Assembly: GCA_029940695.1 (NCBI GenBank)
Contig: JAPYUP010000005.1
Span: 1,120 to 65,119, forward strand
Reading direction: 5' to 3'
Source of the DNA: Candidatus Thalassarchaeaceae archaeon
GTDB taxonomy: Archaea; Thermoplasmatota; Poseidoniia; Poseidoniales; Thalassarchaeaceae
Length of the DNA stretch: 64,000 nt
Made by a program: the position numbers and the translations under genes. The notes under the pieces were generated by a model. That model was not told the DNA's origin. It did not search any database and worked only from the letters and a program-made list of their open reading frames with translations. Of this stretch, positions 19,348 to 44,111 are shown one piece after another. Within the stretch, counting starts at the first letter, position 1; the number at the start of each line of letters is the position of its first letter.

Positions 19348-19860
19348 TCAGATGTATATTCTGCCTCGCTTGCGGAAGACGTGCCAGACACCCAGCCCCA
19401 TTAGGAAAATGAAGACAGTCATCGTCAGCAGCGCGTCGATGACCTCGCTGTCCTTGAGCACTCCTCCCCCCTTCTGTATGGCCATGACACCGCCAAAGGC
19501 GAGGAACATGAACGCGATATCGAAGACGAGGAACACAATTGCGTACCAGTAGTACTGGAAGTGGAAGTTGATATCGGCTTCCCCCATAGGATCAGAGCCG
19601 CACTCGTATGTGCTATCGCGACGCAGGTACAGGCTCTGGTCGGTCTCGTACCCGGGTAGAAGAATAGATCTCATCTTAGTGCCGTCGGACCCCTTCTTAG
19701 TCGGCCTCAGAAAACGGGTTGCGATGAAACTGATTACCGGGAATCCAACGCCGACGAGGGTCATGACGGCAACGGGGAGGTACATCTCGGCAACTGTAGT
19801 CATCATATCACCATCGGTCCCGTAGGGACCGTCATGGACCGCCACGAAAAAACCGGACAT
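19348..19860 (-). CDS. nuoA: NADH-quinone oxidoreductase subunit A (170 aa, with about 20-aa loop insertion)
   Basis: Three TM helices with the YECG motif. Immediately followed by nuoB; start possibly at an internal Met. Confidence 0.75.
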   Translation of the reverse strand: MSGFFVAVHDGPYGTDGDMMTTVAEMYLPVAVMTLVGVGFPVISFIATRFLRPTKKGSDGTKMRSILLPGYETDQSLYLRRDSTYECGSDPMGEADINFHFQYYWYAIVFLVFDIAFMFLAFGGVMAIQKGGGVLKDSEVIDALLTMTVFIFLMGLGVWHVFRKRGRIYI

Positions 19861-19892
19861 AAGCGTATCCGAAGGTGGGTCTAGGACTCTGC

Positions 19893-22583
19893 TCAGTCAT
19901 CGTACTCGTTGTTGAGCGACTCGACCATCAGACGGTTCTCGGAACGAGAGCGGGCAAACAAGTAGAGCACGAGGAGCGAACCCACCACTATGACCGCAAT
20001 GGCCAGGACATCCTGCATCTCGTCGGAGAGTGCACCAACCCCCAGAGTGGAAGTCATCGTCAAATCCACGGGTTGTCCTGCGACTGGTAGGTCCTTCGGC
20101 TGCACTGTGATTGTGAAAGTATAGTCGTCCTCAGCGATCATCTCGTTTGGGGGCGTCACCCTGACCTTGACCTCTCTGGTTTCACCCGGGTCTAGTTCGA
20201 ACTCGTCGCTAATCACATCGACCGTCCATCCCCTGAGCGAATCGCTGGACAGGACTTCGACGTCCTCCACCGTATTGCCATGGTTTGAGACATAGAGGGT
20301 GAATTCAGAGTGCTCTGGATATGGAGCCTCCTTCTCGTCAGAGGACTCCAGTGTGAAGCGAAGGTCGTGAATGGTCCTGATGTCCACTGCGATATCGACG
20401 AAGGAGGGAATCTGGGCCGTGTTCTTCTTCGAAGTGACGCCTATCCTCAAGACTCCCGAAGTTCCGCTCTCGATTCCCTCTAGGACTTCGAACTCTATCT
20501 CGACGAGAACCTGGTTATTCGCGGGGACCCTGACGTCTCCTTCGACCTCGGAACCATCTACGCTGACGGTCCGGAGAACCGATGAGTCCATTCCTGTAAT
20601 CGAAATCACGACGTCATCGGCGCCGCCGTCCCCGGTGTTGGAAATCCAGAGAGTCAGCGTGGTGGAACCTCCTGGGGGTAGGGCCATGTTCATCAATTTC
20701 GGATCGTCCCCTGGATTCTCGAAAGCCACGGCCATGCTGTAGTTGTAGATGGAGACGATGACAGACACCCTGTCAATCATCAGAACCTCCGTTCCGACGA
20801 TGCCGATTCTGACTTCGAACTCCTCCGACTTGTTATCGGCGTTGTCCGAGACTAGGACTTCCAAATAGATGCGTGCGGTCTGCTCGGAATCGAGGGTTAC
20901 CAGAGTGACGTTGTTGCCCTCGAAGTCTTTGAATCGGGTCGGCCACTTGGTCTGTTCGCAGGTGTCGTTGATGTCTGGGTCGCAGGAGCTTAGTCCATAC
21001 GAATCCTGAATGTTGCCAGTGTTGGTTAGATCGATGGGAAAGGCAACCCATTGCGTGAACCTGCCAGTCTGGGAGTCTGAGGGGAAGTCCATGCTCCCGC
21101 TGTGAACCGGCGCGACCGTCACTATGACAGAGACCTCGTCATGAGTGGTTCCGGATGAGCTCACTATGAAAGTAATCGGGAACTCGGTGCCTGCTTTGCC
21201 GCTGGATGGGACAGTGATTTGCGCTTGCACGTACACCCTGTCGCAGTTTGTCGATGTCGTGCAGTGCCTGCCATCCACGGTAACGGAGTTCGTCGAAAGG
21301 TCCACCTGCCAACCAGGAATGAGGTCCTTGACTCCTAGGGCGTAGGTGTCTTGGCCGTTCCCGGTGTTCGTGACTTGGATTGAGGTCGACTCGGTGGCGC
21401 CTGGTTGGACGTTGCTCAGCGTCGGTTGGGTGAGCGAGAGTGAGGCATCTCGGACCTGCCCGAGAGTCACCCTGAGGATGGATTCACACCCTACGCTGCT
21501 GCCGGCTCGACCCTGGATGTAGACGTCAATCGTGCCGGGCTCGACGGAGTCGTCGGGAACTATGACAAAGTCGAAGATGGTCGAGTCCTGAGAGCCACCC
21601 GGCTCGGATAGCAGCCTGCTGGTAGGGGTGTCGAACTCCACCCAATCACTAATGTCGTATCCCTCAGCCATAGCAATCGCACTGACTGTCCAAGCCGTGT
21701 TGCCAGTGTTCACCAAAGAGAAGGAATTGGTTGCCGATTCTCCAGGGTCCAGCGTGTGAGAGGAGGCTTGCAACGAGGAGTCGCAGGTCTTCACCTCGGG
21801 AATCTTCAGGGTCAGTGGGATGCTGTCGTTGGCCTGATCGAGCGTGTTTGGGTCACTGGTCATGGTCGCCTCCATGGTGAAGCAGTGGTTGCCGGAATCG
21901 GTGGAGCTGCCATCGGGCAGATTCACCATCACGGTGGCTTCCTCCGACTCGCCCTCGCTCAGGGACATTTGCTGCGGATCTACACTGGCATCGAGGCCGT
22001 CCGAGTCGCAGTCGCTGGATGAGGTCATGCTGAGCTGAATGGTCTGATCGCCATCGGCCTCACCAGTGTTCTCGACGTCGACTATCCACTCGACCTCGTC
22101 TTCCTCTCCGTCATAGTTGATGGCGCCATTGCTGGGATTGGAATAAGTGAGCGTGACGGAGTACTGGCCACCGCCTTCGGCGGACGTAGTCACCTTGATA
22201 TCCCCGTTGGCAGTTTCTATTCCTGCAACTCCAGTAGCAGTCACCGTAGTCTCGCATTCTCCTGATGCTTGGTCGTTGACGCTCACCGTTAGCGTCCTGG
22301 CCTCTGAATCGCCTTCGTTCAAGGAGAATGGGGTCCCTCCGTTCTCGATTGACGAGGTGAAGCCGTTGCAGTCCGAGTCCTGCGAAGTGCTCATGGTTAC
22401 AGTCAGGTCCTCATCACCATCGTTGGTGATTGTGATGGTGTACTCGGCCGGGTCGTCTGTGGTGGCCTCCTTGGCCATGGAGTCCGCCGTCAAGAACAGG
22501 GAGGCCGCAGCTAGCACCGTTGGCGCGAGCAGTGAAACGAGAAGGAGGGCAGTGAAAATGGTCGCTGAGTCAGGCCTTCTCAT
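19893..22583 (-). CDS. Large secreted CARDB-repeat cell-surface protein with C-terminal TM anchor
   Basis: 896 aa with an N-terminal signal peptide (LLLVSLLAPTVLAAAS). Repeated ~100-aa modules carry V/I-x-N-T/H-G-N CARDB-like signatures (ITITNDGDEDL, VDVENTGEADG, IQVTNTGNGQD, IDLTNTGNIQD, LWISNTGDGGA, LYVSNHGNTVE). C-terminal hydrophobic helix AIAVIVVGSLLVLYLF plus a short tail. Lower GC than flanks. Confidence 0.7.
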   Translation of the reverse strand: MRRPDSATIFTALLLVSLLAPTVLAAASLFLTADSMAKEATTDDPAEYTITITNDGDEDLTVTMSTSQDSDCNGFTSSIENGGTPFSLNEGDSEARTLTVSVNDQASGECETTVTATGVAGIETANGDIKVTTSAEGGGQYSVTLTYSNPSNGAINYDGEEDEVEWIVDVENTGEADGDQTIQLSMTSSSDCDSDGLDASVDPQQMSLSEGESEEATVMVNLPDGSSTDSGNHCFTMEATMTSDPNTLDQANDSIPLTLKIPEVKTCDSSLQASSHTLDPGESATNSFSLVNTGNTAWTVSAIAMAEGYDISDWVEFDTPTSRLLSEPGGSQDSTIFDFVIVPDDSVEPGTIDVYIQGRAGSSVGCESILRVTLGQVRDASLSLTQPTLSNVQPGATESTSIQVTNTGNGQDTYALGVKDLIPGWQVDLSTNSVTVDGRHCTTSTNCDRVYVQAQITVPSSGKAGTEFPITFIVSSSGTTHDEVSVIVTVAPVHSGSMDFPSDSQTGRFTQWVAFPIDLTNTGNIQDSYGLSSCDPDINDTCEQTKWPTRFKDFEGNNVTLVTLDSEQTARIYLEVLVSDNADNKSEEFEVRIGIVGTEVLMIDRVSVIVSIYNYSMAVAFENPGDDPKLMNMALPPGGSTTLTLWISNTGDGGADDVVISITGMDSSVLRTVSVDGSEVEGDVRVPANNQVLVEIEFEVLEGIESGTSGVLRIGVTSKKNTAQIPSFVDIAVDIRTIHDLRFTLESSDEKEAPYPEHSEFTLYVSNHGNTVEDVEVLSSDSLRGWTVDVISDEFELDPGETREVKVRVTPPNEMIAEDDYTFTITVQPKDLPVAGQPVDLTMTSTLGVGALSDEMQDVLAIAVIVVGSLLVLYLFARSRSENRLMVESLNNEYDD

Positions 22584-22682
22584 CGAATGACCGACTCAAT
22601 CGCCCCTCTAAGGGCTTCGGGCACTGCGTGCGCCAATTATCGCGGTTCTGATAGGTGTTGCAAGGTCGTTGGTTAGTCGAGT

Positions 22683-25600
22683 TCACTCTCCCTTGTGATC
22701 GGGGTCGGGCACCCATTCCTGTTTGCTCGGGTCCCATAGCCAGCCAGGGTACTCCGAGAAGCGCTCCAGGTTCGGTTCACTCTGCTCGGCCTCTAGCTCG
22801 GCTTCCTGTTCGGAATCCCACCACTTCTCGTCTTCGTCTGTAGGATATGCATCATACTCAGTCGACTCCCGCCGCTTCCCGACTGAAGGCATCCGGTCCA
22901 GTAGGACTTTGAGGTTGCCACCAGACTTCTGGTAGAGTATGGCTGCGGCGCCAGCGAGTGTCACAATGAGAAGGATTGCGAGTCCAAAGACCCAAATCGG
23001 TGTCCCATCGTCCGAATCATCAGGGATCACGTCGATTTGCAAGCTGATGCTATGGCCGGAAACGTGCTCGGCATCTGCGAGCATCAACACCACCTCCCCA
23101 TCGGATCCCGAATTTGGGATGAAGGAGATCTGCACCGATCTCGTCTCACCCGGCTGCATCGTGACTAGGATACCATCCAGAATCCTAATGTTCCAACCAG
23201 TGGGCCCTTCGGAAACTAGACGATTTGAGACTACGGAGTTGCCGGTGTTCTGCAGCTCGAAGTACAGAGTCGTAGAGTACCCCTCGTGAGCCTCGTTCAT
23301 GTTCTGGAGCGTCCACGTGACCTCGTTCACGATTTCAACCAGGAGGGAGACGGTGTATCTTGACTCGATTCCACCGTCCGAGAGGACGAGGGTGATTTCG
23401 GGTTCGGAGCCTGCTTTCTCGTAGACTGGGATAACTATGGTGCACCACACAGTGGCTGTTTGGCCGGGAGTAATCTTTGAGGGGTTGACTGAGCATGTGG
23501 AGGACCAATCTTCACCGGGTAGCTCCATGCTCGCATCTGGCTGCCAGCTCGACGAACCGTCATTGGTGACCTTCCACGCCATGTCGAAGCCTGGAGCCCC
23601 GACAGGATGAGCTCCAGACCCCAATGGGGTATCGGACGATGAGCCGTTGGTGAAAGAGACCTCGTAGAAGGATATCGTCGGAACGGCGCTGGAGATGACT
23701 TGGAGAGTCCTGTTCCAATCAACAGAGAAGCCGTCGTCCGTTAGGAACCGAATCTCCACTAGACCGCCGGAGGCCAATCCGTTGCCCTGAATCGAGAAGG
23801 ACCATTCAGTTGATGAGCCTCGCTGTATGGAAACGTTGTCCAAGCCACTAGGAATCGTCCATCCCCCAGGCAGCGCTCTGTCTATCGGTGTCAGCAGCAA
23901 CTCACGGTTCCCCTGATTGGCGATCTGGAGGGTTATCTCGTGCAGGGCATCAGCGGTCACCTCTGACTCGGTGCCACCAGAAGTCGGTGTGAACTGGATG
24001 GAATCATAGACATCGATGACCAGGGGCAAGTCATATGTCCACGTATCAGAACTGACTCTGGATTTGACTACCAACTGGGCGTTGAAAGTCGCACCTGCGT
24101 CGATTAAGACCCCCGGCGGCTCGATGCTGATTCCCACAGAAATCGAGCCTTCCTTGCTTAGCGTTCCAGTGGATCCCTCAGCGGAGCCTGGGAATGGGCC
24201 GATGTCGTCGAAGCCGAGATTCCATCCGGCGGGGGAGACCAGTTCGACATCGTAGGTCTGGGCACCGTTGCCTTGGTTCCGTATCTCTACCTCCAAGTTG
24301 GTGTTCTCAAAGGAGTTCGCTGTAATCGACTCTCCGGGCAGCGTGACATCGGGTTGGGCTAGCACGGGAACGTCGAAGAAAATCTCCAACTGCGACTCGA
24401 TGTCGTACTCCACGTCGGTTGCGGTAACGACTATCACGTAGGTGCCGGGTTCTGGAGAGGCTGGGTGAACCAGTGTGAGATTGACAGTAGTTGACTCCGC
24501 TGGTCCCAGGTTGATGTTGAATGCGTCAAACGCCTTGAACCAGTCGAATGAGGCCCCGTCCCTGGACCTCACCGGGTCAGATGCGTCGATGGTGGCGTTG
24601 GTCTCGAACAGAGCCAAGTTGGTCATCACAATGGCCCAAGTGGTCGTAGTGTCCGTTGCATCGCCTAGCGTACTCCAAGGTAAGTCGGACGAGGCCTGAA
24701 TCCCGGGTGCGCTGACGGGCACGATTCTCACGAGGATGTTGTTTTCCTCGGAGAGTTCCTCGAGCTGGTCATTGGGGTCTATCTCAATCCTGATCTCTGT
24801 TTCGACTGCGAAGAAAGGGGTCCAGTCCCATTCCAGAAGAGCGTCCTCACCAGGGGACATCCCCAGGGTCTTGGTTCCGATGTGATTGCTGTTCACATAA
24901 GCAGAAACATGAACTTCTGGGAAGGAGCCAGAGCCTTGGTTGACGATGGAGACCGAGAACTGAGCCTCCTCTCCGACTTGGGGTATCGGTGTGGATATTT
25001 CGAACGAGCTAGGGATTACTGCGGGATCAGGGATCAGGTCGTTGACGTTGACCCCCCTGACCGCTATCGCAAATGGTTGGTAGGTCCTGCTTCCACCATG
25101 TGAGAAGTCCTTGACCTTGACGTTCCAGACACCTGTAGCAGCGGAGTCGATGAGGACGACTTCGACGTTGTTTTTGTTGTCCTTGGTCCCCCCTGTGGTC
25201 GACTTACCGTTGCTGAAGTCATTGCCAAAGTATGTGACCTGCCCGTCTGGAGAGGTGACCTCCAGATTCAGGTCGTTCCTCAACTGGGTATTGGACCAAG
25301 TCGACCCCGGATAGTCCGACCATGTGAGTACCACCTTTAGAGGCTCACCAGCACGGGTGACATCGAAGTTGTACTGCGCCAGCTGTCCGCTGGATAGACG
25401 TGATCTGTCATCCACATACGTCCCAATGTCACCATCGGGAACCAAAGTGTTGACGAGGTTCAGCCTCCCCCATCCTTCGTCTTCGTTGGGGATGTCACGG
25501 GTGCCCATGTCTACAGCACCGAGAATGAGCATAGCCTTCACCAGAGCTCCTTGAGGAGCCGGTCTCTCGGCAATCTCCATCAGGTACTCCCTGACTATTA

Positions 25601-27149
25601 CCGAGGCTCCGGCAGCAGCCGGCGTTGCCATCGAAGTTCCGCTATATTCCACATACCACTGATTGTTGAGATTGTTGGGTGCGTCCTCGGCCTCCTGTGC
25701 CCTGCAGGATCTCACATAGTCCCCAGGGGCAACTAGATCAGGCTTGATCCTGCCATCATCCGTGGGGCCTCTGCTGCTCCAGTAGTACATCTCGTCGGGT
25801 GAGTCATACCTGTTTACGTGAGCACCCACGGTAATCACGTTCTTCGCCGTCCCAGGAGGTGAGATCCCGTCATCCCTCTCGTTGCCCGCCGCGAACAGAA
25901 CCGTCATCCCCTGATAGGCCCAGTACTGATCCCAAGTGGAAGTACGATCGTCAGCGTCCTCCGCTTGGGTGGTGTAGTCGCCACCGGAGCCTAAACTCCC
26001 CCAACTGTTTGCGTGAAACCTAGCTCCACCCGAGTTGTAGGCGGTGCTTAGCAGCGTGTAGACCCCAGGTCCACCCAAAGTGCCCGTATCATCATCCTCC
26101 ATGGCCTGCAAGTAGAGTTCCGCCTCTGGGGCCACGCCCTCGTAGGTACCGGTTCGGAAGCCTGAGCCAAGGACCGTACAGGATACGTGGGTACCATGTC
26201 CATCGTTCGTGTCGGCTGTCGAACCATCGCCCGAGACGTCGATTCGCTGCACAATCCTATTGCCGAAGTCTCCATGGTCATGATCGATGCCGGTGTCCGC
26301 CACAGCAATCCTCTGACCGCTGCCGTTTAGGCCTGTGATGAATGTCGTCTCCGCTACGTCGACGCCCATGTGGGAACGGACTTGGTCGTTGAATATTGAG
26401 AGAGTGGGGGTGGGGGCGAGAAACGCGGTTTGCGGATGCATGGCGATGTCTATGGCTTCGGATGTCGACAGCAACCCGAAGTGGATGCCGCCCCCGGGGG
26501 ACCAAGGCTCTTCCAATGATAGGTGTGCCAAGTCGTTCAATGACCCCCCCAGTCCGAGTCCAGGAGTATCTAGTCGGTTGAGTTCCGCATCCTTCCAGCC
26601 TAGCAATTCGACCTCTGTGGAAGCATCAGGAGCGCGGTCCCATAGCAGGCTGTGGAGAAGCAGTGCGACAGGCACCTCGTGGCTCGAAGTAACGATGGAC
26701 AGGCCGCTAACGATCTCTAACTCCGCCCCAGTTCCCTGCACGAGGAAGCCAGAGGGCGGAATCGTCGATCGGATCGCCACATCGGCCGAGTCGGAAATCT
26801 CAATACGAGCGTCCCACAGACCGACCTCAGAGTCAATGAGGACGATTATGAGGTCGGGTCGAGGTGCCTTGAGACGGTCTGGAAGTTCAGTGCTCAGAAA
26901 GAGGCCCGAATCGGTGTAGATTCCGATTGAAGAATCGGCTTGAATTGGCCGTGAGGTCTCGGAACCAGACTGTATCGTCGGAGCACCGAGGTTCCTGATG
27001 CTGTTGGGATCCGGGGAGATTTCGATTCTAGTGACCTGCGGCTCAAGGGGGCTTGCTTCGTCAGAGTCGATATTCGCGTCATGGCTTGTTATCGGAGTGT
27101 AAGAGGCGAGCAGCAGGACTAGAATGAGTACCGAGACTTGCTTTTTCAT
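22683..27149 (-). CDS. Giant membrane-anchored subtilisin-like serine protease (peptidase S8) with CARDB-like repeat domains and an acidic Trp-containing cytoplasmic tail
   Basis: 1488 aa with signal peptide, then the S8 triad motifs DTGIDHDHGDF, HGTHVSC and GTSMATPAAAGASVIV. A long post-catalytic region carries repeated x-N-Q/T-G-N/S modules. TM helix (IWVFGLAILLIVTLAGAAAILY) precedes an ~85-aa cytoplasmic tail ...EDEKWWDSEQEAELEAEQSEPNLERFSEYPGWLWDPSKQEWVPDPDHKGE. Confidence 0.85.
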   Translation of the reverse strand: MKKQVSVLILVLLLASYTPITSHDANIDSDEASPLEPQVTRIEISPDPNSIRNLGAPTIQSGSETSRPIQADSSIGIYTDSGLFLSTELPDRLKAPRPDLIIVLIDSEVGLWDARIEISDSADVAIRSTIPPSGFLVQGTGAELEIVSGLSIVTSSHEVPVALLLHSLLWDRAPDASTEVELLGWKDAELNRLDTPGLGLGGSLNDLAHLSLEEPWSPGGGIHFGLLSTSEAIDIAMHPQTAFLAPTPTLSIFNDQVRSHMGVDVAETTFITGLNGSGQRIAVADTGIDHDHGDFGNRIVQRIDVSGDGSTADTNDGHGTHVSCTVLGSGFRTGTYEGVAPEAELYLQAMEDDDTGTLGGPGVYTLLSTAYNSGGARFHANSWGSLGSGGDYTTQAEDADDRTSTWDQYWAYQGMTVLFAAGNERDDGISPPGTAKNVITVGAHVNRYDSPDEMYYWSSRGPTDDGRIKPDLVAPGDYVRSCRAQEAEDAPNNLNNQWYVEYSGTSMATPAAAGASVIVREYLMEIAERPAPQGALVKAMLILGAVDMGTRDIPNEDEGWGRLNLVNTLVPDGDIGTYVDDRSRLSSGQLAQYNFDVTRAGEPLKVVLTWSDYPGSTWSNTQLRNDLNLEVTSPDGQVTYFGNDFSNGKSTTGGTKDNKNNVEVVLIDSAATGVWNVKVKDFSHGGSRTYQPFAIAVRGVNVNDLIPDPAVIPSSFEISTPIPQVGEEAQFSVSIVNQGSGSFPEVHVSAYVNSNHIGTKTLGMSPGEDALLEWDWTPFFAVETEIRIEIDPNDQLEELSEENNILVRIVPVSAPGIQASSDLPWSTLGDATDTTTTWAIVMTNLALFETNATIDASDPVRSRDGASFDWFKAFDAFNINLGPAESTTVNLTLVHPASPEPGTYVIVVTATDVEYDIESQLEIFFDVPVLAQPDVTLPGESITANSFENTNLEVEIRNQGNGAQTYDVELVSPAGWNLGFDDIGPFPGSAEGSTGTLSKEGSISVGISIEPPGVLIDAGATFNAQLVVKSRVSSDTWTYDLPLVIDVYDSIQFTPTSGGTESEVTADALHEITLQIANQGNRELLLTPIDRALPGGWTIPSGLDNVSIQRGSSTEWSFSIQGNGLASGGLVEIRFLTDDGFSVDWNRTLQVISSAVPTISFYEVSFTNGSSSDTPLGSGAHPVGAPGFDMAWKVTNDGSSSWQPDASMELPGEDWSSTCSVNPSKITPGQTATVWCTIVIPVYEKAGSEPEITLVLSDGGIESRYTVSLLVEIVNEVTWTLQNMNEAHEGYSTTLYFELQNTGNSVVSNRLVSEGPTGWNIRILDGILVTMQPGETRSVQISFIPNSGSDGEVVLMLADAEHVSGHSISLQIDVIPDDSDDGTPIWVFGLAILLIVTLAGAAAILYQKSGGNLKVLLDRMPSVGKRRESTEYDAYPTDEDEKWWDSEQEAELEAEQSEPNLERFSEYPGWLWDPSKQEWVPDPDHKGE

Positions 27150-27230
27150 CTGAGTACTCCCCTATTCAGATTCAATTTGAGGCTATGGGTTCCACGGTAA
27201 TCCTGCCGTGTGATTGGTTGGTTGGTTGGA

Positions 27231-27791
27231 CTAGAAGACTCTGAACGGAGCCTCGTCCACGAACACCTCCCTAGTCCAATCGCCGACCTTGTGAGTCCAT
27301 CTCTCCGAGCCATCGCCACCATAGTATTGGTAGTTCAGGATGATTTCGATCGTGTATTGCTCCCATACCGATTGGCCGACGACAATCATCTCTAGATTGT
27401 CTCCAGCGATGGAGGTGTGGGCGGCGATTTCGTCTATAGCGAAGTCAGAACGGCCTTTTTCAATCCCGTCTGCATCGAGGAACCTCATTGTCAGGATGAC
27501 ATCTTCTAGGGTCCTGCTGCCCTTGTTGTCCAATTCAGCGAGTACGACATGGCCGGAACCTGCCTGCATGTAGGCGACATCCACATCGACATTGTCATAG
27601 GGGACAACCCATATTAGGACGAACAAAGAAGCTGAGAGGATTAGGAACGCGGTAATCGAGGCGAAGACCACGCGAGTTGGAGTGATGACTGCGGCAGCGC
27701 GCTCCCCGATCTTCTCGAGAATGACGTGGGCGGCCTCGGAGTCCTGGTCCTCACCAGTTTGGGTACCCACCTTCTCCAACAGGCCCATCAT
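27231..27791 (-). CDS. Small single-pass membrane protein (type II topology) of unknown function
   Basis: 186 aa with one TM helix (VVFASITAFLILSASLFVLIWVV) after an acidic N-terminus. Start ATGATG overlaps the stop of the upstream giant gene (operon). Confidence 0.55.
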   Translation of the reverse strand: MMGLLEKVGTQTGEDQDSEAAHVILEKIGERAAAVITPTRVVFASITAFLILSASLFVLIWVVPYDNVDVDVAYMQAGSGHVVLAELDNKGSRTLEDVILTMRFLDADGIEKGRSDFAIDEIAAHTSIAGDNLEMIVVGQSVWEQYTIEIILNYQYYGGDGSERWTHKVGDWTREVFVDEAPFRVF

Positions 27792-30700
27792 CCATCACCC
27801 CATAACGTCGCAACCAAAGTGAAGATGCCAGAAGAAAGCGGCTCTGGGGCCATGATGTGACTTGTGGTTCCAGAGAAACCGGGAACCATGTTGAGCAGAG
27901 ATAGGTCGGATGCCAGGCCGTTGACACCCAAAGTCGTACCAGAGGGTACTCCACCCGTCGTCTGTGCATCGAGCAAGACACCTCTGAGGTCGAAGTCCCT
28001 GTTGTTGAAAGTCGCGGAAGCCCTCGCAGACACGATGATGCGCCCGCCCTGAACCTCCTCGATCTCTATGACGCTGTAGGCCCCAATAATCTCCCTAACA
28101 TGAATCGTCGCGCTCTTCAGATTCTCTCCTAAAGCCTCCATCTCTTCGAGGACGATCGGCGGCATGGTTGGGACGTTCGTTGCGCGCATGTACAACCTGT
28201 CGACACCATCTCCTCCCGACCTGACGTTCAGGCCATACGACGTAGTGGGCTTGATGACCAGCCTGTCCGACATGCCCTCGGCCAGCAGAACGATGTCCCC
28301 CCTGCTGTTGATAGCCCTGCCGAGCGCCTCAATGTACAACGACATCCCCTCACGAGAGGCAGAGAAGTCGAGGATTGGCATTCCTTGGAAGGCTATGTTT
28401 TGGGTGATGTCGAAGTTCAGGTCCGGTTCGGTCGTCAGATTCATCGAACCCGGAACTTCGGTCAGGAACATGGTTGCCGGCCACCACGATCCATCCATCC
28501 ACTGCATTTGCTGGAGCATGATTGAGCCTACACCAAAGCCGTCGGTCCTGTACTGCTCCGGAACCGTCATGTCAATCGAGAGCGCTGTGCCTAAACTAGC
28601 TTGGATCTCGACTGACTCCGGGATGTCCTGAACCATCATCTCAGTCCGACTGCCTGCCTCCCTGTCAATGAGCAGGGCGTGGAACCAATCAAGTCTGGTG
28701 GACATCCTGTACAACGTAGAGGTGGAGACCTCGGTGATGCCTCCCACTGTATCGATATTGAAGACCGAGTCGAGTAAGAGCGAGGTCGAAACACCTGGCT
28801 CAAGGCCTTCGAGAGTAACGAAGAGGTCTTGCCCGTTGATGTCCTTGTAAACAAAGATGAACTCGGAATGCTGCGGTTTCCATCCATCGAGGCCGAGGCT
28901 GACAGCCCAGCTCTGGCCATTAGTCGTAGCCGTTCTTGAGATGGACAGGTCGATGGTGGGGGGTAGATTGGGTATCCAAGTCCTGAAGTGGAATCCATCG
29001 GCTATTCCCGAAGGAGCGGAGTTTAGGGACATCCCATGTACCCAATCGGGGTCTTCAACCACTTGCTCTCCCATTGAAGAATCCACCACTAGGTCGAACT
29101 CGGTGTCAGCCTCCATTCCGAGTCCGAAAGAGAATCCGTCCTCCCCCGATACCGATCCGGTCGATATGTCAGTGGTTATGCCTGCGAGAACGCTATTGAC
29201 CGAACGTCCTAGGTCGGCAAAGCCGCCGATGAAGAAGGCTATTCCCGACAGGCCGCTCGAGGAATTTAACTGCGGGATTACCAACGATGGCCCAGATTGT
29301 GAGCCGGTGGGGATCTGCAGTGACACCGTCGATGGTAGGGGATCAATCTCAGCGAGGACCGTTAGGGGTGACCTTTCGCTGGTAGGAGCGTTTCCAACGT
29401 TTATCATAAACGGGTTCGAGGTCCCGAAGGTCGCATAGGCACTACCCATACCGGCTGAGCCAGAGGCCCCCTCTACCTGAGGTGGAATCCAACCTACTTC
29501 ACTTAGACCGGAGATCCTCGAAGAGAGGGTGGAGGCATCGGTAGAAGGGTCGTGATGGAATAGGAAATGGTCTCCGGACATCGACAGTGGTGATGACGAA
29601 TTGCTCAACTGGACCTCTATCTCAGTGATTTCAGACGGGGAAGACCAGGAGAAGGCATTCCCTGAGGTGGTTGTGAACGCAGCTGGGAACCCCGAGATCC
29701 TCGCAGCTTGACTTTGCTTCCCATCCATCCCGGTGTACACTATTGAGGCGATTGGGGTAGAAGCACTATACTCCATCCCATTTGGGGTGATTCTGACTGA
29801 GATATTGTCAGGGAGGTCTGATAGCATGATTGATTGGTAGGACGATCCGTTAATTTGACCGGTATCGTGATTGATGAAGGTTACAGACAGAGACTTGTTC
29901 GACTGAGTATCAAGACTGATTGATTGTTCGTCAGAGTTGTCTGAATCTACAAAGGAGAAGGCCTGAAGCATGCTCAATCGGATGCTAGCGGCGACTGGTA
30001 CCAGTGGGTCTACGGGACCGTGGTCGGTTTGTATGGTATTCAGACCGCGATCTTGGGCAAGAATAACATGATCACCCGGTACAATTGGGTGTTTGGAGGA
30101 CCCTATCTGCATACTTAAAGATTGGATGGGATAAAAGGACCTGCTTTCTCTCCAGTTGTCTGTGAGCAAGAGGTGGAAGGACCGGCCGTCAAGTCCGTCT
30201 CCACCACCCACCCCTCCACCAATAACCTCGACCATCGAAGAGGGGATTTCATTGAGGACGTTGCCAACGTCGAGGAACAAATCGACTATGTTGAGGATTA
30301 CTGAGTCCATAATCTTGGAAAAGAAATCGAGGTTTTCCGTAGAATCGAGTGAGGTGTCGGGGTCTTCTGATCCCCCTAGGCCGAATGAGCCGAACACAGC
30401 AATTGCAGTTGGTATGGAACTAGCAGTGATTTTTATTCTCCTGTGGTCCTCCTCCAGTCCACCCCTAGTAAACCAAGACGTGTAATCCACTGACTCTAGA
30501 GACTGCTCTGAGCGCAAGACGACTAGGCTATTGGGAGGGTATGCTGGATTGATGGGCAGGGTAGGGTCGTCGACGTTCTGACTCGTGTCCCTAGTGAAGT
30601 TCTTGATGCCGATGATCAGACCGAGTTTCTCAGGTAGACCCCCGGGCAACTCGGGGCTGTCTGCTGAGCCGAGCATTCTGAAAATCCTGCTGATCTCGTT

Positions 30701-32167
30701 ATTGGACAACGAGCCTGCCGGCATGCCTCTGAACCAACCCTTTGTGTCGGTAACGTTGCCAAAGTTCCCGTCTGACTCAGATGGGGGTAGATTCGATCTG
30801 TTCTCATGGAAGTGGATGTGCAAGTCAGCCCTCTCATCGGCCCAGTACTCGATTGTGGTGAGGCTGCGCTCGCCCTCCATGCCCGTCGAGGTAGGGAGCA
30901 CGCTGTCGGTTCGGATGACGACCTCGGCCGAGTTTGGGATTACGACCGAATCGCGATGTGGATGAAGCCTAGCCTCTATGTAGGCAAGTTCCCAAATTTC
31001 CCTGTTCCCATTCTCGTTAGGTGGTGAAAAGTGCAGGTAGCCGAATCCTGCAGACACACCGCATGATATCTCTATCGAAGGCTTGGAATGGAGTTCGGAA
31101 GAGTTGTAGCGATTCGGGCAGTCGGACTGGCCGGAGTTTTCCAATCTCAGGGCAAATGGTGACGATATTGCCGCGAATGCGATGCCAGACTCAATGATAT
31201 CCTCCGTTCCGGTATTGAGAAGGCCCAAAGTCAGAATGGTAATCAAATCGATACCTGCGGATGAGGTGTCAAAGTAGAAACGCTCGATTCCAACCTCGAA
31301 CTCAAAGTCGTACGGTGCCGTGGTAAATCTCGAGTCAATCACCCAGATGTAGCTCTCACCATCCCCAAGAGCCAGGATTGAATCCGAACCCGAGTATGAC
31401 ATGGCCTTGATGATTGAGACCTGCAGCGAATCAAGGTCATCCCAGTCTGGGTCGTTCCGACTGTCCTCCAGAACCTGCACCGAGAACACAATGCCCGGTT
31501 CGATCCAAAGCGTGTCGCCCACAAGTCCCCAGCCTCCAATAAACTCCCACGAAATCTTCAGGCCGACCTGGATGTCGTCGTCACCGTCATCATCGATGTC
31601 GATTGCGTGGAGTAGCGGCTCCGTTTGCAGGTCGAACAAGGAAAGCAGGGATGCACTGAATGTTACCACCTCAACCTGTTCGGTGACGTTGCCGCTGCTG
31701 TTAGTATACTGTGTCCAAATCACGTAGTCCGTGATATTAAACAGCGTCTGCCATATGTTGTCGACGAAGCCGGGGGGTCTGCTACTGGAATCAATCAGCA
31801 GTTCGTACGGTGCTGGATGTATGGGAGTTGGGGGTGAGGTCTCGAGCATGGCAGCTCCCTCAACCGCTAATCCGACCAAGGATAGGGGGTCCGAGGAGTC
31901 GGACGGCCCCACAGCTTCACGAACAGCATCGATTCTCGGCTGAGCGAGGGTAGAGACCGAGTTTGAGTTCAGGATCTCCTGTCGCTCAGAGAGCATGTCA
32001 GTCAGTTCTTCAAGAATCTCGAAGTCTTGGGATTCTATCCTAACCTCGCCATTGACGCTGGAGAGAGGGGAAAACAGGGTAAGAACTAGCATTGCGGTCA
32101 GTAGTAGGGTGAGGTGGGTGGGACCACGAGGTACCCGAGAGTCGCCTTCAACATCGCTCATATCCAA
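27788..32167 (-). CDS. Giant (about 1459 aa) secreted/N-terminally anchored protein with no recognisable domains
   Basis: Start is TTG at 32167 or ATG at 32161. N-terminal hydrophobic segment LTLLLTAMLVLTLFSPLSS, then a Ser/Thr/Asn/Asp-rich sequence without catalytic motifs. GGAGGTG Shine-Dalgarno lies inside a perfect hairpin just upstream. Lowest GC of the window (about 40% in spot checks). Confidence 0.7.
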   Translation of the reverse strand: MDMSDVEGDSRVPRGPTHLTLLLTAMLVLTLFSPLSSVNGEVRIESQDFEILEELTDMLSERQEILNSNSVSTLAQPRIDAVREAVGPSDSSDPLSLVGLAVEGAAMLETSPPTPIHPAPYELLIDSSSRPPGFVDNIWQTLFNITDYVIWTQYTNSSGNVTEQVEVVTFSASLLSLFDLQTEPLLHAIDIDDDGDDDIQVGLKISWEFIGGWGLVGDTLWIEPGIVFSVQVLEDSRNDPDWDDLDSLQVSIIKAMSYSGSDSILALGDGESYIWVIDSRFTTAPYDFEFEVGIERFYFDTSSAGIDLITILTLGLLNTGTEDIIESGIAFAAISSPFALRLENSGQSDCPNRYNSSELHSKPSIEISCGVSAGFGYLHFSPPNENGNREIWELAYIEARLHPHRDSVVIPNSAEVVIRTDSVLPTSTGMEGERSLTTIEYWADERADLHIHFHENRSNLPPSESDGNFGNVTDTKGWFRGMPAGSLSNNEISRIFRMLGSADSPELPGGLPEKLGLIIGIKNFTRDTSQNVDDPTLPINPAYPPNSLVVLRSEQSLESVDYTSWFTRGGLEEDHRRIKITASSIPTAIAVFGSFGLGGSEDPDTSLDSTENLDFFSKIMDSVILNIVDLFLDVGNVLNEIPSSMVEVIGGGVGGGDGLDGRSFHLLLTDNWRESRSFYPIQSLSMQIGSSKHPIVPGDHVILAQDRGLNTIQTDHGPVDPLVPVAASIRLSMLQAFSFVDSDNSDEQSISLDTQSNKSLSVTFINHDTGQINGSSYQSIMLSDLPDNISVRITPNGMEYSASTPIASIVYTGMDGKQSQAARISGFPAAFTTTSGNAFSWSSPSEITEIEVQLSNSSSPLSMSGDHFLFHHDPSTDASTLSSRISGLSEVGWIPPQVEGASGSAGMGSAYATFGTSNPFMINVGNAPTSERSPLTVLAEIDPLPSTVSLQIPTGSQSGPSLVIPQLNSSSGLSGIAFFIGGFADLGRSVNSVLAGITTDISTGSVSGEDGFSFGLGMEADTEFDLVVDSSMGEQVVEDPDWVHGMSLNSAPSGIADGFHFRTWIPNLPPTIDLSISRTATTNGQSWAVSLGLDGWKPQHSEFIFVYKDINGQDLFVTLEGLEPGVSTSLLLDSVFNIDTVGGITEVSTSTLYRMSTRLDWFHALLIDREAGSRTEMMVQDIPESVEIQASLGTALSIDMTVPEQYRTDGFGVGSIMLQQMQWMDGSWWPATMFLTEVPGSMNLTTEPDLNFDITQNIAFQGMPILDFSASREGMSLYIEALGRAINSRGDIVLLAEGMSDRLVIKPTTSYGLNVRSGGDGVDRLYMRATNVPTMPPIVLEEMEALGENLKSATIHVREIIGAYSVIEIEEVQGGRIIVSARASATFNNRDFDLRGVLLDAQTTGGVPSGTTLGVNGLASDLSLLNMVPGFSGTTSHIMAPEPLSSGIFTLVATLWGDG

Positions 32168-32252
32168 GTCGCACCTCCTAGAGGTGCGCTATATGGTATT
32201 GCCCTGCCCGTACTCGGGACTATCGGAGTTTGAACCGAATACCGGAACGCGG

Positions 32253-34460
32253 TCATCCAAGGCTCACGAGCTCCTCGGAACCACAGTAAGGACAGTTAGT
32301 GTAGGCAGAGTCTATGCCTTCAGGAAGCTCTAGGTCAAACGGTCGACTGCATGACGAACACTCCCTCCTGACCTTCCTGTCGACAATTGTCTCAGGCTCG
32401 GAATCTTCTGGCTCCTCAGTAAGACCGGTCAGTACATCGTCCTCGGTCGGCGACAAGCCCGCTCGCTCGAGGGGGTATTGAACTGAAATCTGATCTGCCG
32501 TATCCATGTCAATCGGCGATACCATGTCAATCGTCTGTCGGGACGGGGGTTGGAAGGGAGACTCATCGGAACCCCCCCACATTGCAACTTGGGCCCCCTT
32601 CAACGATGATTCTGAACTAGGATCATCAGCCCCCTCGTCTTCAGAGATGTTCGAAACCCTACGCTTGACTGCTAGGTTGAATGCCACGAAACCGCCAAGG
32701 GACAGAAGCAGGAGTACAATGACTGCGATTAGAGCGATCGAAAACGGACCCAGCCCCCCCTGGCCATCCCCCTCACTCTCGACAATTACCAGCATCTCAG
32801 CCACGGACACCAGTCCCGCTTCGTTCTCCACCTGGCAGACGACGTATTGCGGACCTACGGTCGCGAAGATGTAAATGACTTGAGGGCCGCTGAATTGTAC
32901 CTCATTAGCTGTTCCCTGTTCAAAGATCCACGTGTACTCGAGCCTTTCGGACTCCGAGTCCTCGGCCATTAGATGAAACTCTGTTGGAACTCCGACTTTG
33001 ACCTTCAACTCTTCTTGTAATGTGCCGATAGCTGGGGGGGTAACGTCGATGATGGTGATGGTAACATCGTCCTGCGAGCTCCTGCCGGCCCTGTCGTTCA
33101 CACGCAGGGAGATGACATGATTACCGGCAGCATAATCTGTGGAGATGTCGAAACTCAGGGTCGAACTGGGTTCAGTGACGCTGTAGTTCGATTCGATTAC
33201 CACGTCGTCGAGTAGCCAGTCAAGACTATCGACACCCCAATTGTCAGTGAACGTGCCACTTAGGACGATGTTCTCGCCGAATCCCTTGAGGATCTGTCCC
33301 CCTGCTCCAATCGTCACAATTGGGTCGGAGATATCCTGAACCTGAATTTCTCTGGTTGAACTAGCGCTTCTGGAGTCTACTGACATCACGGATAGCCTGA
33401 TTGTATAGTTTCCTGGACTGTCCCATGAATGGGAAGTGGTCGGCCCTGTAGCATCTGCTAAACCATCCCCGTCGATATCCCATGAGAATCCAGATTCAGG
33501 GATCTGGTTGGACTTGTTTGGAGTATCTAGTGCTGAGAGGGTGATGGTTGCACCGACGTCAACCGAATCCAATGAAGGCTCGCTGGAGATCGTTGGGTCA
33601 AGTACGGGGGTGAGGGTGATGGTTACCGTCACACCCGCAGGTGCGGTGCCCGCACCTCCCCCACCTGGTCCTGGACGATTGTCTACAATGACATAGATAT
33701 CCTCGCCATTCGTATTGGTGGCCTCCCACGGAAGGTACCTCTCGTTGGTCACGAGGAGCATATCAGCGGAAACTATCCTCGAGGCAGCGGACCAGTTGAC
33801 GCTGGGGGAGTAGAGAGAGTAGGCAGATTCGGTCATCACGAAGATATCGGGATAGCCCTCCATCGTCCTCGCGTGAATCTCAACGAACGTTCCGTCGTCC
33901 ACGGAGAACGGGCCGTACGCTATCGCGTAGCCACCCACCCCTACCCGATGGATTGAATCCGAGAGAGTGTACTGCTGGGGGAAGACCGTCCCGCCATCGA
34001 GGGAGACTTCCGCGGATTGGCCGCCTTGTGCTCCTTCTCCTCCGTCTTGGGGATGTTCGCGGTTGTCCAGAACCAGATACCATCTCGTCTCCTCTCTATC
34101 GCTGGGAACCGTCCAATGCCATTCGCCCGAGCCGCTGAATAACTCGAATACCGATTCGCTCTGCCAAATGGAAGTCGAGCGGTATGACTGCTCGTTCTGG
34201 TATACTGAAACGCTGTTCGCTGAGAACATCAGGATGTCAATCTCCCGATTAGTCGACACTTCAAAGAACAGGGTTGTGCCGGGCTTCTGGATTCCAAGAT
34301 CGACCCTGACGCAAGTCTGGTCTGCCATGCTCCAATTGTCAGGAAGCGAGGCAAGTTCGGAGTTGGCGCACGAGATGACTCCCTTCGGACTGGCGTTAAC
34401 TGTCGAAGCCAATGAGCTCAGGACAAGGATGCCCACAACGACGACGTATGCCCAACGCAT
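32253..34460 (-). CDS. Surface protein with PKD domains, single TM helix and a cytoplasmic C-terminal C4 zinc ribbon
   Basis: 735 aa with signal peptide. PKD-type motif FSWDIDGDGLADATGPTTSHSWDSPGNYTIRLSV plus a second Ig-like repeat. TM helix FSIALIAVIVLLLLSLGGFVAF, an acidic cytoplasmic linker, then terminal CSSCSRPF...x14...CPYCGSEEL. Confidence 0.75.
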   Translation of the reverse strand: MRWAYVVVVGILVLSSLASTVNASPKGVISCANSELASLPDNWSMADQTCVRVDLGIQKPGTTLFFEVSTNREIDILMFSANSVSVYQNEQSYRSTSIWQSESVFELFSGSGEWHWTVPSDREETRWYLVLDNREHPQDGGEGAQGGQSAEVSLDGGTVFPQQYTLSDSIHRVGVGGYAIAYGPFSVDDGTFVEIHARTMEGYPDIFVMTESAYSLYSPSVNWSAASRIVSADMLLVTNERYLPWEATNTNGEDIYVIVDNRPGPGGGGAGTAPAGVTVTITLTPVLDPTISSEPSLDSVDVGATITLSALDTPNKSNQIPESGFSWDIDGDGLADATGPTTSHSWDSPGNYTIRLSVMSVDSRSASSTREIQVQDISDPIVTIGAGGQILKGFGENIVLSGTFTDNWGVDSLDWLLDDVVIESNYSVTEPSSTLSFDISTDYAAGNHVISLRVNDRAGRSSQDDVTITIIDVTPPAIGTLQEELKVKVGVPTEFHLMAEDSESERLEYTWIFEQGTANEVQFSGPQVIYIFATVGPQYVVCQVENEAGLVSVAEMLVIVESEGDGQGGLGPFSIALIAVIVLLLLSLGGFVAFNLAVKRRVSNISEDEGADDPSSESSLKGAQVAMWGGSDESPFQPPSRQTIDMVSPIDMDTADQISVQYPLERAGLSPTEDDVLTGLTEEPEDSEPETIVDRKVRRECSSCSRPFDLELPEGIDSAYTNCPYCGSEELVSLG

Positions 34461-34500
34461 CGAGCGACCGTTCGCCCTTGCCTTATGAACGGTATCGCAG
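34461..34500 (-). promoter_or_regulatory. Putative promoter of the surface-protein operon: TATA-like TTCATAAGG centred about 25 nt upstream of the ATG, enclosed by a 7-bp inverted repeat
   Basis: Minus-strand sense reads ACCGTTC-ATAAGGCAAGGGC-GAACGGT. The perfect 7-bp inverted repeat lies at 34468-34474 and 34488-34494. Spacing to the ATG at 34460 fits a leaderless archaeal transcript. Confidence 0.3.
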
Positions 34501-35904: not shown

Positions 35905-36008
35905 TGGTCCGCGCTCCCGGACTTGAACCGGGGACCCCCTGATGGCTGCCTACAACCAAGTGTTTCCAGTCTACAGTCAGGTGCTCTAGCCAACTGAGCT
36001 AAGCGCGG
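35905..36008 (-). tRNA. tRNA-Tyr (anticodon GUA) with a ~27-nt intron at the canonical 37/38 position; CCA encoded
   Basis: Reverse complement folds as acceptor CCGCGCU/AGCGCGG, D-arm GCUC-AGUUGGCUA-GAGC, anticodon stem CCUGA/UCAGG, loop CUGUAG^A interrupted by ACUGGAAACACUUGGUUGUAGGCAGCC, T-arm CCCGG-UUCAAGU-CCGGG, discriminator A, CCA. Confidence 0.7.
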
Positions 36009-37309: not shown

Positions 37310-37321
37310 GTGTCTCTAGGG

Positions 37322-38140
37322 ATGATTGCCATGGAAAGAGGAATAATTGCCTTCAGTGTCGCGATTCTTTTTCTCTCTTCCACCTCCATCGTGCCCGCCT
37401 CTGCCCAGGCTGCTGAGGACCCCAAGCAGCCTTCCGTGGACAACCCCCACATGCACTTGTGGGGCACAGACGACCTGTCATCATGCTGGACCCACTTCGA
37501 CAGTAACGATTCTTCAGGCTCGGCAGAGAGCGGCTACGGGGAGCAGATATTCGGTGATGGCCAGCAAGTCTCCGTCGACTACACATGCTCGATGCAGGAC
37601 ACTTTCCTTCAGGACATGTACCTGAATTCCAATGGCACTATTGAGGTCGACTTAGTCGTCAACATTTGGTCGGGAGATTGCGACCAAGGCTCGGAGTGCA
37701 AGAACCTGACCCTGACGCTATACCAAGGAAACATCCAGGTAGCTCAGAAGGAGTTCCAAGCGGTTGACAACAACGGCAACGATGAGATGATTTCCTGGGA
37801 CATTCCGGTTGACCAGAATACCACGAGGTGGAACAAGAGCAGCGAGGAACCTCGGTTACAAGTCGAGTTCTCGTGGCCAGGTTACAATGGCATTGATTGC
37901 ATCCTCCCATTCGTTGACTGCTCTGGTTCGTTCAGGATGTACTACGAGAACAACGAGGACGGGAACGATGCGACTGTCAATTTCCCAGTGGTGAATATGA
38001 CCGAGGCTGGTCCGAACGGAGAGGGTCCTGTGGATGGTGAAGATGACGAAGGATTCCTGCCTGGATTCGGCCTTCTTGCCGGCCTTGGCACGCTTGCCCT
38101 AGCGTCAGTGACTAGTCGATCAAGGACCGAAGAACATTAG
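37322..38140 (+). CDS. Secreted Cys-containing glycoprotein-like protein with PGF-CTERM archaeosortase sorting signal (paralogue 1)
   Basis: Signal peptide (AILFLSSTSIVPASAQA), several NxS/T sequons, conserved Cys pairs, then C-terminal LPGFGLLAGLGTLALASVTSRSRTEEH, which is PGF motif plus TM plus basic tail. Confidence 0.8.
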   Translation: MIAMERGIIAFSVAILFLSSTSIVPASAQAAEDPKQPSVDNPHMHLWGTDDLSSCWTHFDSNDSSGSAESGYGEQIFGDGQQVSVDYTCSMQDTFLQDMYLNSNGTIEVDLVVNIWSGDCDQGSECKNLTLTLYQGNIQVAQKEFQAVDNNGNDEMISWDIPVDQNTTRWNKSSEEPRLQVEFSWPGYNGIDCILPFVDCSGSFRMYYENNEDGNDATVNFPVVNMTEAGPNGEGPVDGEDDEGFLPGFGLLAGLGTLALASVTSRSRTEEH

Positions 38141-38190: not shown

Positions 38191-38212
38191 AGCGTTTCTC
38201 GTGCGGTTTCCG

Positions 38213-44100: not shown

Positions 44101-44111
44101 CTCGATTCCCG

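Follow-up and report, generated by a model that had tools for sequence, protein, structure and literature searches.

The minus strand of a 64,000-nucleotide (nt) stretch of contig JAPYUP010000005.1, from a Candidatus Thalassarchaeaceae archaeon (hereafter called the window), carries a block of five co-directional open reading frames (ORFs) that is the subject of this analysis. The genes are labelled E, B, C, D and A, E being the furthest upstream and A lying next to nuoA; they are spaced by gaps of ~81-99 nt, plus an overlap between B and C. The window also encodes FtsZ, ribosomal protein L15e and the nuo operon, which, with an intron-containing tRNA, mark its source as archaeal; a look-up of identical proteins finds the locus on contigs of metagenome-assembled genomes such as GCA_029936035.1, and the source is assigned to Marine Group IIb (MGIIb), order Poseidoniales. 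The block is a core, vertically inherited feature found order-wide in Poseidoniales (Marine Group II, hereafter abbreviated as MGII), not a foreign island, and its gene D encodes a surface-anchored subtilase. The genes and the predicted architectures of their products (with lengths in amino acids, aa; TM, transmembrane; Ig, immunoglobulin) are as follows.

32253..34460, minus strand: gene E, 735 aa; signal peptide, duplicated N-terminal domain at aa 24-290 (33591-34391, minus strand), three PKD/Ig domains at aa ~299-565, TM helix at aa 575-593, variable acidic cytoplasmic linker, zinc ribbon at aa 698-735 (32256-32369)
27788..32167, minus strand: gene B, 1459 aa, TTG start; signal peptide, predicted all-beta, conserved hydrophobic helices at aa 615-650 and 974-1003, C-terminal H-x3-PEP-x-SS...TL tail (27791-27859)
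27231..27791, minus strand: gene C, 186 aa; cytoplasmic N-terminus, TM helix at aa 42-60, ~125-aa beta-rich ectodomain; single-pass, N-in
22683..27149, minus strand: gene D, 1488 aa; signal peptide, ~270-aa N-terminal region, S8 domain at aa 276-561, P-domain, six CARDB-type Ig-like domains at aa ~718-1361, TM helix at aa 1387-1405, Trp-rich acidic cytoplasmic tail
19893..22583, minus strand: gene A, 896 aa; signal peptide, seven Ig-like repeats with an NxGN motif, TM helix at aa 859-877, short conserved RSRxENR tail

Our ORF calls reproduce exactly the coordinates and lengths that the first-pass annotation had given for five co-directional minus-strand genes, and Pfam scans returned the domains it had assigned to their products, namely S8 subtilase, P-domain and CARDB in D, Ig-like domains (FixG_C, NPCBM_assoc) in A and PKD in E; no Pfam domain was matched in B and C. 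Its statement that all the products carry either a signal peptide or a TM anchor is borne out by a hydropathy scan, in which a signal-like N-terminal segment is present in A, B, D and E, and a TM helix lies at the C-terminus of A, D and E and at a single internal position in C. The five products, all strongly acidic (pI 4.05-4.37), are shown by these predictions to be exported or membrane-anchored. The two cytoplasmic tails described earlier also hold, the long ones being those of D and E, with the tail of E terminating in a CxxC...CPxC pattern.

Subtilase D, its paralogue A and the PKD protein E

The D protein matches PF00082 over profile positions 1-288 with 145 bits (cut-off 21.8) and an E-value of 3.6e-42, and its catalytic residues D285/H318/S506, together with oxyanion N423, are all invariant in 11 orthologues. 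These sequence features show D as an intact S8 subtilase carried on a six-domain Ig-like stalk and predicted to be TM-anchored with a cytoplasmic tail. Its sequence of signal peptide, S8 domain, long Ig-like spacer and C-terminal anchor is the layout of a cell-envelope proteinase, and D adds a new member to the cell-envelope subtilases, represented by lactococcal PrtP/lactocepin, streptococcal C5a peptidase and archaeal pyrolysin. Besides this layout, it shares with these enzymes an intact catalytic triad and a P-type beta domain, as well as the principle of displaying an endopeptidase at a defined distance from the cell, where external protein can serve as food. It differs from them in that no PA-domain and no large insert were detected in the catalytic domain by Pfam, the S8 match being unbroken over aa 276-561; in its anchor, which is a TM helix with a conserved tail instead of an LPXTG or wall anchor; in the lack of a PrtM-like maturase gene adjacent to D; and in its CARDB-type stalk, which is duplicated as the separate gene A.

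The cytoplasmic tail of D (22686-22934, minus strand) is dimorphic between genera. In the clade of the window it is Trp-rich and acidic, with the pattern YPGWLWDP..EWVPDP, and elsewhere (Thalassarchaeum, O1 and others; for example L034:19300-19467) it is a C4HC3-type zinc finger of the form CWIC...CxxCGARYH...GC...CLHC. The spacing of the latter, C-x2-C-x11-C-x2-C-x4-H-x7-C-x9-C-x2-C, is weakly RING-like.

Residues 161-811 of A align collinearly with residues 739-1361 of D (hhalign probability 96.3%, 572 columns), and A is therefore a protease-less paralogue of the six-domain stalk of D. The A protein additionally matches NCBIfam NF041740, 'choice-of-anchor T', in three stretches with 77.2 bits (cut-off 70) and an E-value of 1.1e-21.

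The N-terminal region of E is strongly conserved and consists of two related subdomains of ~110 aa, which have in common the motifs DI(L/F)(M/V)... and Y(L/V)(V/I)(L/V)DNR and a Gly-rich loop. No relative of this region was found in Pfam or in the PDB; by eye only, the subdomains recall the jelly-roll of pre-peptidase C-terminal (PPC) domains. At the other end of the protein, the cytoplasmic zinc ribbon recognized by the first-pass annotation is confirmed: its four cysteines (C701, C704, C723 and C726, in the arrangement CxxC-x18-CPxC) are invariant in 12 orthologues, and Zn_ribbon_8 matches the tail in 9 of these 12 with a best E-value of 4.6e-6, the window copy alone falling below the gathering threshold.

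The B-C pair: family, coupling and deep history

The first-pass annotation called B an orphan, a label that no longer applies, since a genome scan found relatives of B in 183 species-representative genomes and more than 200 protein clusters match it, the homologues being annotated as Candidatus Thalassarchaeaceae or Thermoplasmatota. B is also the most conserved of the five proteins. An exhaustive phmmer search against 1.84 billion representative proteins gave only 145 matches, mainly fragments, with a few relatives of full length that are 30-39% identical and a remote group at 23-25% identity. None of the matched relatives has a Pfam domain, and B itself had no NCBIfam match and no relative in profile searches of PDB sequences. 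Judged by these searches, B belongs to a small uncharacterized family; the protein itself is large, acidic and devoid of a full TM helix.

The C-terminus of B, H-x3-PEP-x-SS-x3-T-L..., is kept also in the remote lineage considered below. With its invariant PEP, its Ser-Ser pair and a short hydrophobic stretch near the C-terminus, it resembles the PEP-CTERM/exosortase and archaeosortase signals; however, the hydrophobic stretch has only ~11-13 residues instead of a TM segment of ~20 aa, it is not followed by a terminal cluster of Arg/Lys and it is not hydrophobic in the remote lineage, and no sortase gene is present among the window genes scanned. It is too short for a sortase-type signal and lacks the basic cluster of one; more likely, the tail would be a docking peptide.

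Between the stop of B and the start of C there is an overlap of 4 nt (ATGA), or of 1 nt with the second ATG as start; an overlap or a gap of 0-2 nt is found in nearly every species, B and C being the only tightly coupled pair of the block. This recurrent arrangement shows the two genes as translationally coupled. The ectodomain of C has no detectable relation to the repeats of A and D.

A remote archaeal lineage (L094:8841-15798, L095 and L096, on contigs of 62-64% guanine-plus-cytosine content, hereafter GC) encodes B-like proteins of 1779-1782 aa. Its B-like gene is divergent and adjoins ftsZ-secE-nusG-L11, and the overlapping ORF of 141-150 aa that follows is a homologue of C (hhalign probability 94.9%, E-value 4.5e-8, 139 columns). 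From this pair it follows that B-C is the ancient core of the block, which E, D and A joined in Poseidoniales. In the window, ftsZ is likewise divergent, with just 4 kb between it and B on the upstream side, and the ancestral linkage may thus have been that of ftsZ with B-C.

Junction elements, synteny and composition

Each junction of the block, including that with nuoA, bears conserved sequence elements, listed here from upstream to downstream.

34481..34498, minus strand: conserved promoter-like motif GCGATACCGTTCATAAGG, ~20 nt before the start of E
32170..32203, minus strand: conserved motif GGCAATACCATATAGCG, then the perfect palindrome CGCACCTC-N3-GAGGTGCG (32170-32188), abutting the start of B
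27176..27210, minus strand: hairpin CACGG-N8-CCGTG past the stop of C, then motif AACCCATAGCCTCAAA before D, conserved across species
22603..22634, minus strand: imperfect inverted repeat GGCGCACGCAGTGCC past the stop of D (hairpins are clearer in orthologues), then conserved motif CGAAGCCCTTAGAGGGG before A
19803..19892, minus strand: true A-nuoA spacer, with motif GGATACGCTTAT (19859-19871), palindrome CGGTCCC-N3-GGGACCG (19815-19831) and the probable nuoA ATG at 19806 or 19803

The consensus sequences of the upstream motifs across species are GCGATAC(C/G)RTTCAWAAGG for E, GGCAATACCHTWTAGCG for B, AACCCATA..CTCAAA for D, CGAAGYCCTTAGAGGGG for A and GGATASGCTTAT for nuoA. The motifs lie ~20-38 nt 5' of the starts of E, B, D and A and ~52 nt 5' of the revised start of nuoA, and they are near-unique, with 60/63, 52/57, 45/49 and 48/52 of their matches in 3.2 Mb of loci falling at the expected site (the first figure being that of the A motif at the D-A junction). 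Past the stops of C and D there are hairpins, which differ in sequence. The geometry of the upstream elements is that of archaeal TATA/BRE promoters with short leaders or none. Because each junction bears its own conserved motif in this geometry, we infer separate transcription units for E, B-C, D, A and nuo, each with a conserved promoter-like element of its own. The operon that the first-pass annotation had deduced from stop/start overlaps is consequently reduced to one pair: the overlap at ATGATG (27791-27786) is real, amounting to 4 nt between the stop of B and the start of C, but no other junction of the block overlaps.

The same annotation had the block ending 33 bp before nuoA with no evident promoter in between, which does not hold. 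The short gap results from calling the longest ORF of nuoA, the start of which (ATG 19860) falls within the conserved GGATACGCTTATG motif, at a place where other species have no ATG; the conserved N-terminus of NuoA, M-T/S-T/S-V-x-E-x-Y-L-x-V-A-V-M, begins at window codon 19/20 (19806 or 19803). The longest-ORF start is therefore probably wrong, and the real spacer of ~86-89 nt contains both a conserved motif and a palindrome. The nuoA start is likely to be a recurrent annotation error, which is now corrected. The palindrome of the nuoA leader is present in ~40 of 48 species with fixed arms and a free spacer, and the one before B equally has invariant arms and a free spacer across species, its right arm being the Shine-Dalgarno-like GAGGTG. 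Both look like operators or sequence-specific hairpins; the palindrome before B may be an operator or a hairpin masking the ribosome-binding site.

Comparable ..ATA(A/G)G.. elements are found ~15-35 nt before the starts of other, unrelated genes of the window. Elsewhere in the window, two adjacent plus-strand ORFs (37310-38140 and 38201-39031), both of 276 aa and neither with a Pfam match, have similar upstream motifs (GGGGATAAGCCTCAAACGG and GGGATAACCTCAAACG) and may be tandem paralogues.

Synteny was compared in 80 retrieved species-level loci of MGIIb, gene order being judged as far as each contig reaches. All 80 loci have the same order, ftsZ / ParB-N-like / L15e / PRC / E / B / C / D / A / nuoA / nuoB / nuoC / nuoD, with proteins of similar size (1455-1470 aa for B, 185-197 for C, 1480-1510 for D and 886-904 for A). 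The loci of MGIIa contain distant relatives of B (~34% identity, 1550-1594 aa), also within E-B-C-D-A-nuoABC; a metallo-beta-lactamase gene, with or without an S9 peptidase gene, is inserted there between PRC and E, and no insertion occurs inside E-B-C-D-A. One distant locus is assigned to MGIIa because its NuoB belongs to a 90% cluster named Candidatus Poseidoniaceae. The five genes are thus conserved together, as the coherent module envisaged by the first-pass annotation presupposed, and this across hosts of 35-48% GC in MGIIa and 0.35-0.58 among all loci compared. In the first MG-II genome, the eggNOG seeds of a published table (L15e, MG2_0423; D, MG2_0429; nuoB, MG2_0433) are consistent with the same neighbourhood. 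Compared with the window proteins across ~70 species, the orthologues have median identities of 60% for B, 55% for D, 54% for C, 49% for A and 43% for E, against 67% for nuoC.

The block had been described as a lower-GC island on the basis of two spot values, 0.40 at 29881-29940 and 0.475 at 24000-24060. Both are numerically right, but they stem from unrepresentative windows of 60 nt, the GC of the whole block being 0.551 against 0.581 for the remaining window, i.e. 3 points lower. GC per gene and GC at third codon positions (GC3) deviate by at most 1.7 standard deviations from 44 backbone genes (z-scores from -0.3 to -1.7) and so stay inside the backbone range, whereas the distance in relative synonymous codon usage between block and backbone is 0.54, above the maximum of 0.40 reached by 500 random backbone subsets. 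GC3 declines from A (0.71), which equals the backbone mean, to E (0.61), with B and E at the low-GC3 end, and the deviation in codon usage fits a weaker bias in long, secreted, acidic proteins, not a foreign origin. No integrase or transposase was found when the five genes and ten genes beside them were scanned with Pfam, flanking direct repeats not having been searched. The tRNA gene, which contains an intron, is 1.4 kb off and within the universally syntenic region, between the ParB-N-like ORF and ftsZ. This gene of 101 nt (35908-36008, minus strand) gives an Rfam match of 56 bits and was missed by ARAGORN, its intron being an archaeal hallmark. The block is not an island because its locus and order are universal in the Poseidoniales genomes examined and its composition, codon usage apart, is essentially that of the backbone.

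A proposed role in surface proteolysis, and the alternatives

The best explanation of the block, to which we give a probability of roughly 0.55, is in our judgement that it encodes a vertically inherited group of envelope proteins, specific to the lineage, with proteolysis at the cell surface at its centre. The proteins together would form a sparse-to-moderate surface assembly that captures and cuts extracellular protein. In it, D would be the catalytic element, an endopeptidase anchored on a long stalk, with A and E anchored beside it at matching height as binding or spacing partners; the large, beta-rich B would be secreted as a scaffold and retained at the membrane via C, possibly by its PEP tail, and through the zinc-finger or Trp-rich cytoplasmic tails the surface proteins would be linked with a partner inside the cell, for their positioning or regulation. 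The physical association of the five proteins, as well as every role given to A, B, C and E, is what we infer from these data.

The proteolytic reading fits the accepted protein-degrading lifestyle of MGII, which relies on extracellular S8 and M14 peptidases (PMC6864105, PMC6336850), and the presence nearby of an M14 peptidase and an SNF-type transporter. The latter genes (42262-46283, minus strand), 10 kb from the block, encode an M14 zinc carboxypeptidase (723 aa) and, directly downstream of it, an SNF-family sodium symporter (612 aa), which would make a plausible exopeptidase-uptake pair complementing the surface endopeptidase D. A precedent for a giant envelope scaffold combined with a surface-displayed subtilase is tetrabrachion with its STABLE protease in Staphylothermus marinus, although D is self-anchored, no coiled-coil stalk is predicted in B and the association proposed here comes from gene neighbourhood only.

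Several observations weigh against this explanation. An interaction of the five proteins, or a joint process, is a conjecture, and since the housekeeping flanks (L15e, PRC and nuo) are equally syntenic, the conserved order may reflect low rearrangement instead of function. Each gene apparently has its own promoter, as judged from conservation and position only. The conservation of B above D suggests that B serves a constrained role in its own right, beyond that of an accessory to the protease. The roles assigned to B, C and the N-terminal domain of E are guesses, because none of these has a recognizable fold or family. Finally, E, D, A and nuo are not adjacent to B-C in the remote lineage. The trans-envelope surface apparatus envisaged by the first-pass annotation is more than these data show, in view of the equal synteny of the flanks and the remote lineage in which only B and C stay together, yet a coherent module remains reasonable, given that all the products are envelope proteins, A and D are paralogous and B and C are coupled.

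One alternative is that, save for B-C, the five are functionally unrelated genes for surface proteins that stay together only since the ftsZ-nuo region is rarely rearranged. The strict synteny of L15e, PRC, ftsZ and nuo, the conserved element upstream of every gene, the separation of B-C from PKD and S8 genes in the remote lineage and the uneven conservation, from 43% in E to 60% in B, would all be expected on this account. It does not readily explain why A and D are paralogues through a collinear stalk of six domains, why all five encode envelope proteins, three of them with conserved cytoplasmic tails, why the MGIIa insertions lie between PRC and E and never inside E-B-C-D-A, or why the transcript levels of all five are similar; we consider it unlikely, though worth keeping in mind.

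Another alternative, to which we accord a similarly low likelihood, is that the block builds the structural cell wall, i.e. an S-layer, with A and the stalk of D forming an Ig lattice, B-C its canopy and anchor and the protease riding on the layer, as STABLE protease rides on tetrabrachion. The universality of the block in the order would suit such a role, and these uncultured cells have no other known candidate for their envelope. The architecture of A, with its signal peptide, tandem Ig-like domains and C-terminal anchor, is typical of archaeal S-layer glycoproteins and resembles that of Haloferax volcanii csg also in size (896 versus ~830 aa), in acidity and in Ig-like domains that span the entire ectodomain, but A has no detectable PDB-profile relation and ends in a plain TM helix with a basic tail, with no PGF-CTERM/archaeosortase signal. 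Likewise, B and C recall SlaA and SlaB of Sulfolobales, which are also encoded by adjacent genes for a ~1400-aa, beta-rich exported protein with no full TM helix and a smaller membrane-anchored partner; in contrast to them, the anchor of C is an N-terminal helix and C lacks a coiled-coil stalk, B has two buried hydrophobic helices and a PEP tail, and no similarity in sequence or fold was found, either here or with other solved S-layer proteins.

S-layer genes normally rank with the most highly expressed, and S-layer proteins are usually far less conserved than B. The expression of the block can be gauged from the MGIIb-O1 metagenome-assembled genome SIMO Bin 19-2, where it corresponds to genes 394-398, between nuoA (393) and PRC/L15e (399/400) (Damashek et al. 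2021, PMC9723583 suppl. 4). The figures are those of a single dataset, given per gene as a coverage that does not resolve transcripts. Two samples gave signal, with length-normalized transcript coverages of 0.17/0.20 for A, 0.13/0.04 for D, 0/0.08 for C, 0.13/0.10 for B and 0.17/0.11 for E, compared with 0.15-0.26 / 0.06-0.20 for nuoA/B/C and 1.2-6.8 for ribosomal protein genes in the first sample (PMC9723583). All five genes are thereby shown to be expressed in the sea at an ordinary housekeeping level, about that of nuo and below what would be expected of a lattice-forming S-layer. It is this modest level of expression, together with the median identity of 60% in B, that weakens the S-layer explanation; the position of B and E at the low-bias end of GC3 also speaks against it.

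The reading of the first-pass annotation as a whole, i.e. a horizontally acquired lower-GC island forming a trans-envelope apparatus in one operon continuous with nuo, appears very improbable: the co-directional genes, the slightly lower GC with distinct codon usage, the B/C overlap and the TM anchors with cytoplasmic tails are in its favour, but the same locus recurs in every Poseidoniales genome examined, in hosts of 35-58% GC, and this synteny is the decisive evidence, to which are added the per-gene GC inside the backbone range, the absence of mobility genes from the Pfam scans in and beside the block, the promoter-like motifs with hairpins at the junctions and the miscalled start of nuoA.

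Returning to the envelope set centred on proteolysis, a bolder extension, which we regard as speculative and rather unlikely, is that B-C is the founding pair of a previously unrecognized archaeal envelope complex, older than Poseidoniales and ancestrally linked to ftsZ. The B protein (~1450-1800 aa) would have a fold with no solved relative, made of stacked, long-strand meander sheets around two buried hydrophobic helices, and would be docked by its PEP peptide on the small N-in partner C; the pair would later have recruited the stalked protease, its headless paralogue and the PKD protein, with zinc-finger tails coupling the outside to the cytoplasm.

To our knowledge MGII has never been cultured, and its envelope is known from gene lists only. 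In the MGII literature that we searched, we did not find the fixed five-gene neighbourhood, a separate paralogue of the stalk, surface proteins with zinc-finger tails or the B-C family, which lacks a known fold. The block now emerges as a fixed, order-wide feature, a cell-anchored extracellular protease with four conserved partners annotated as 'hypothetical', in which the block itself, the paralogy of A and D and an ancient B-C pair of no known fold are defined. These results bear on the capture and degradation of marine protein by MGII and on the surface seen by viruses or partners. If B-C were indeed the founding pair, the block would encode the surface machine that defines the most abundant planktonic euryarchaea of the ocean.

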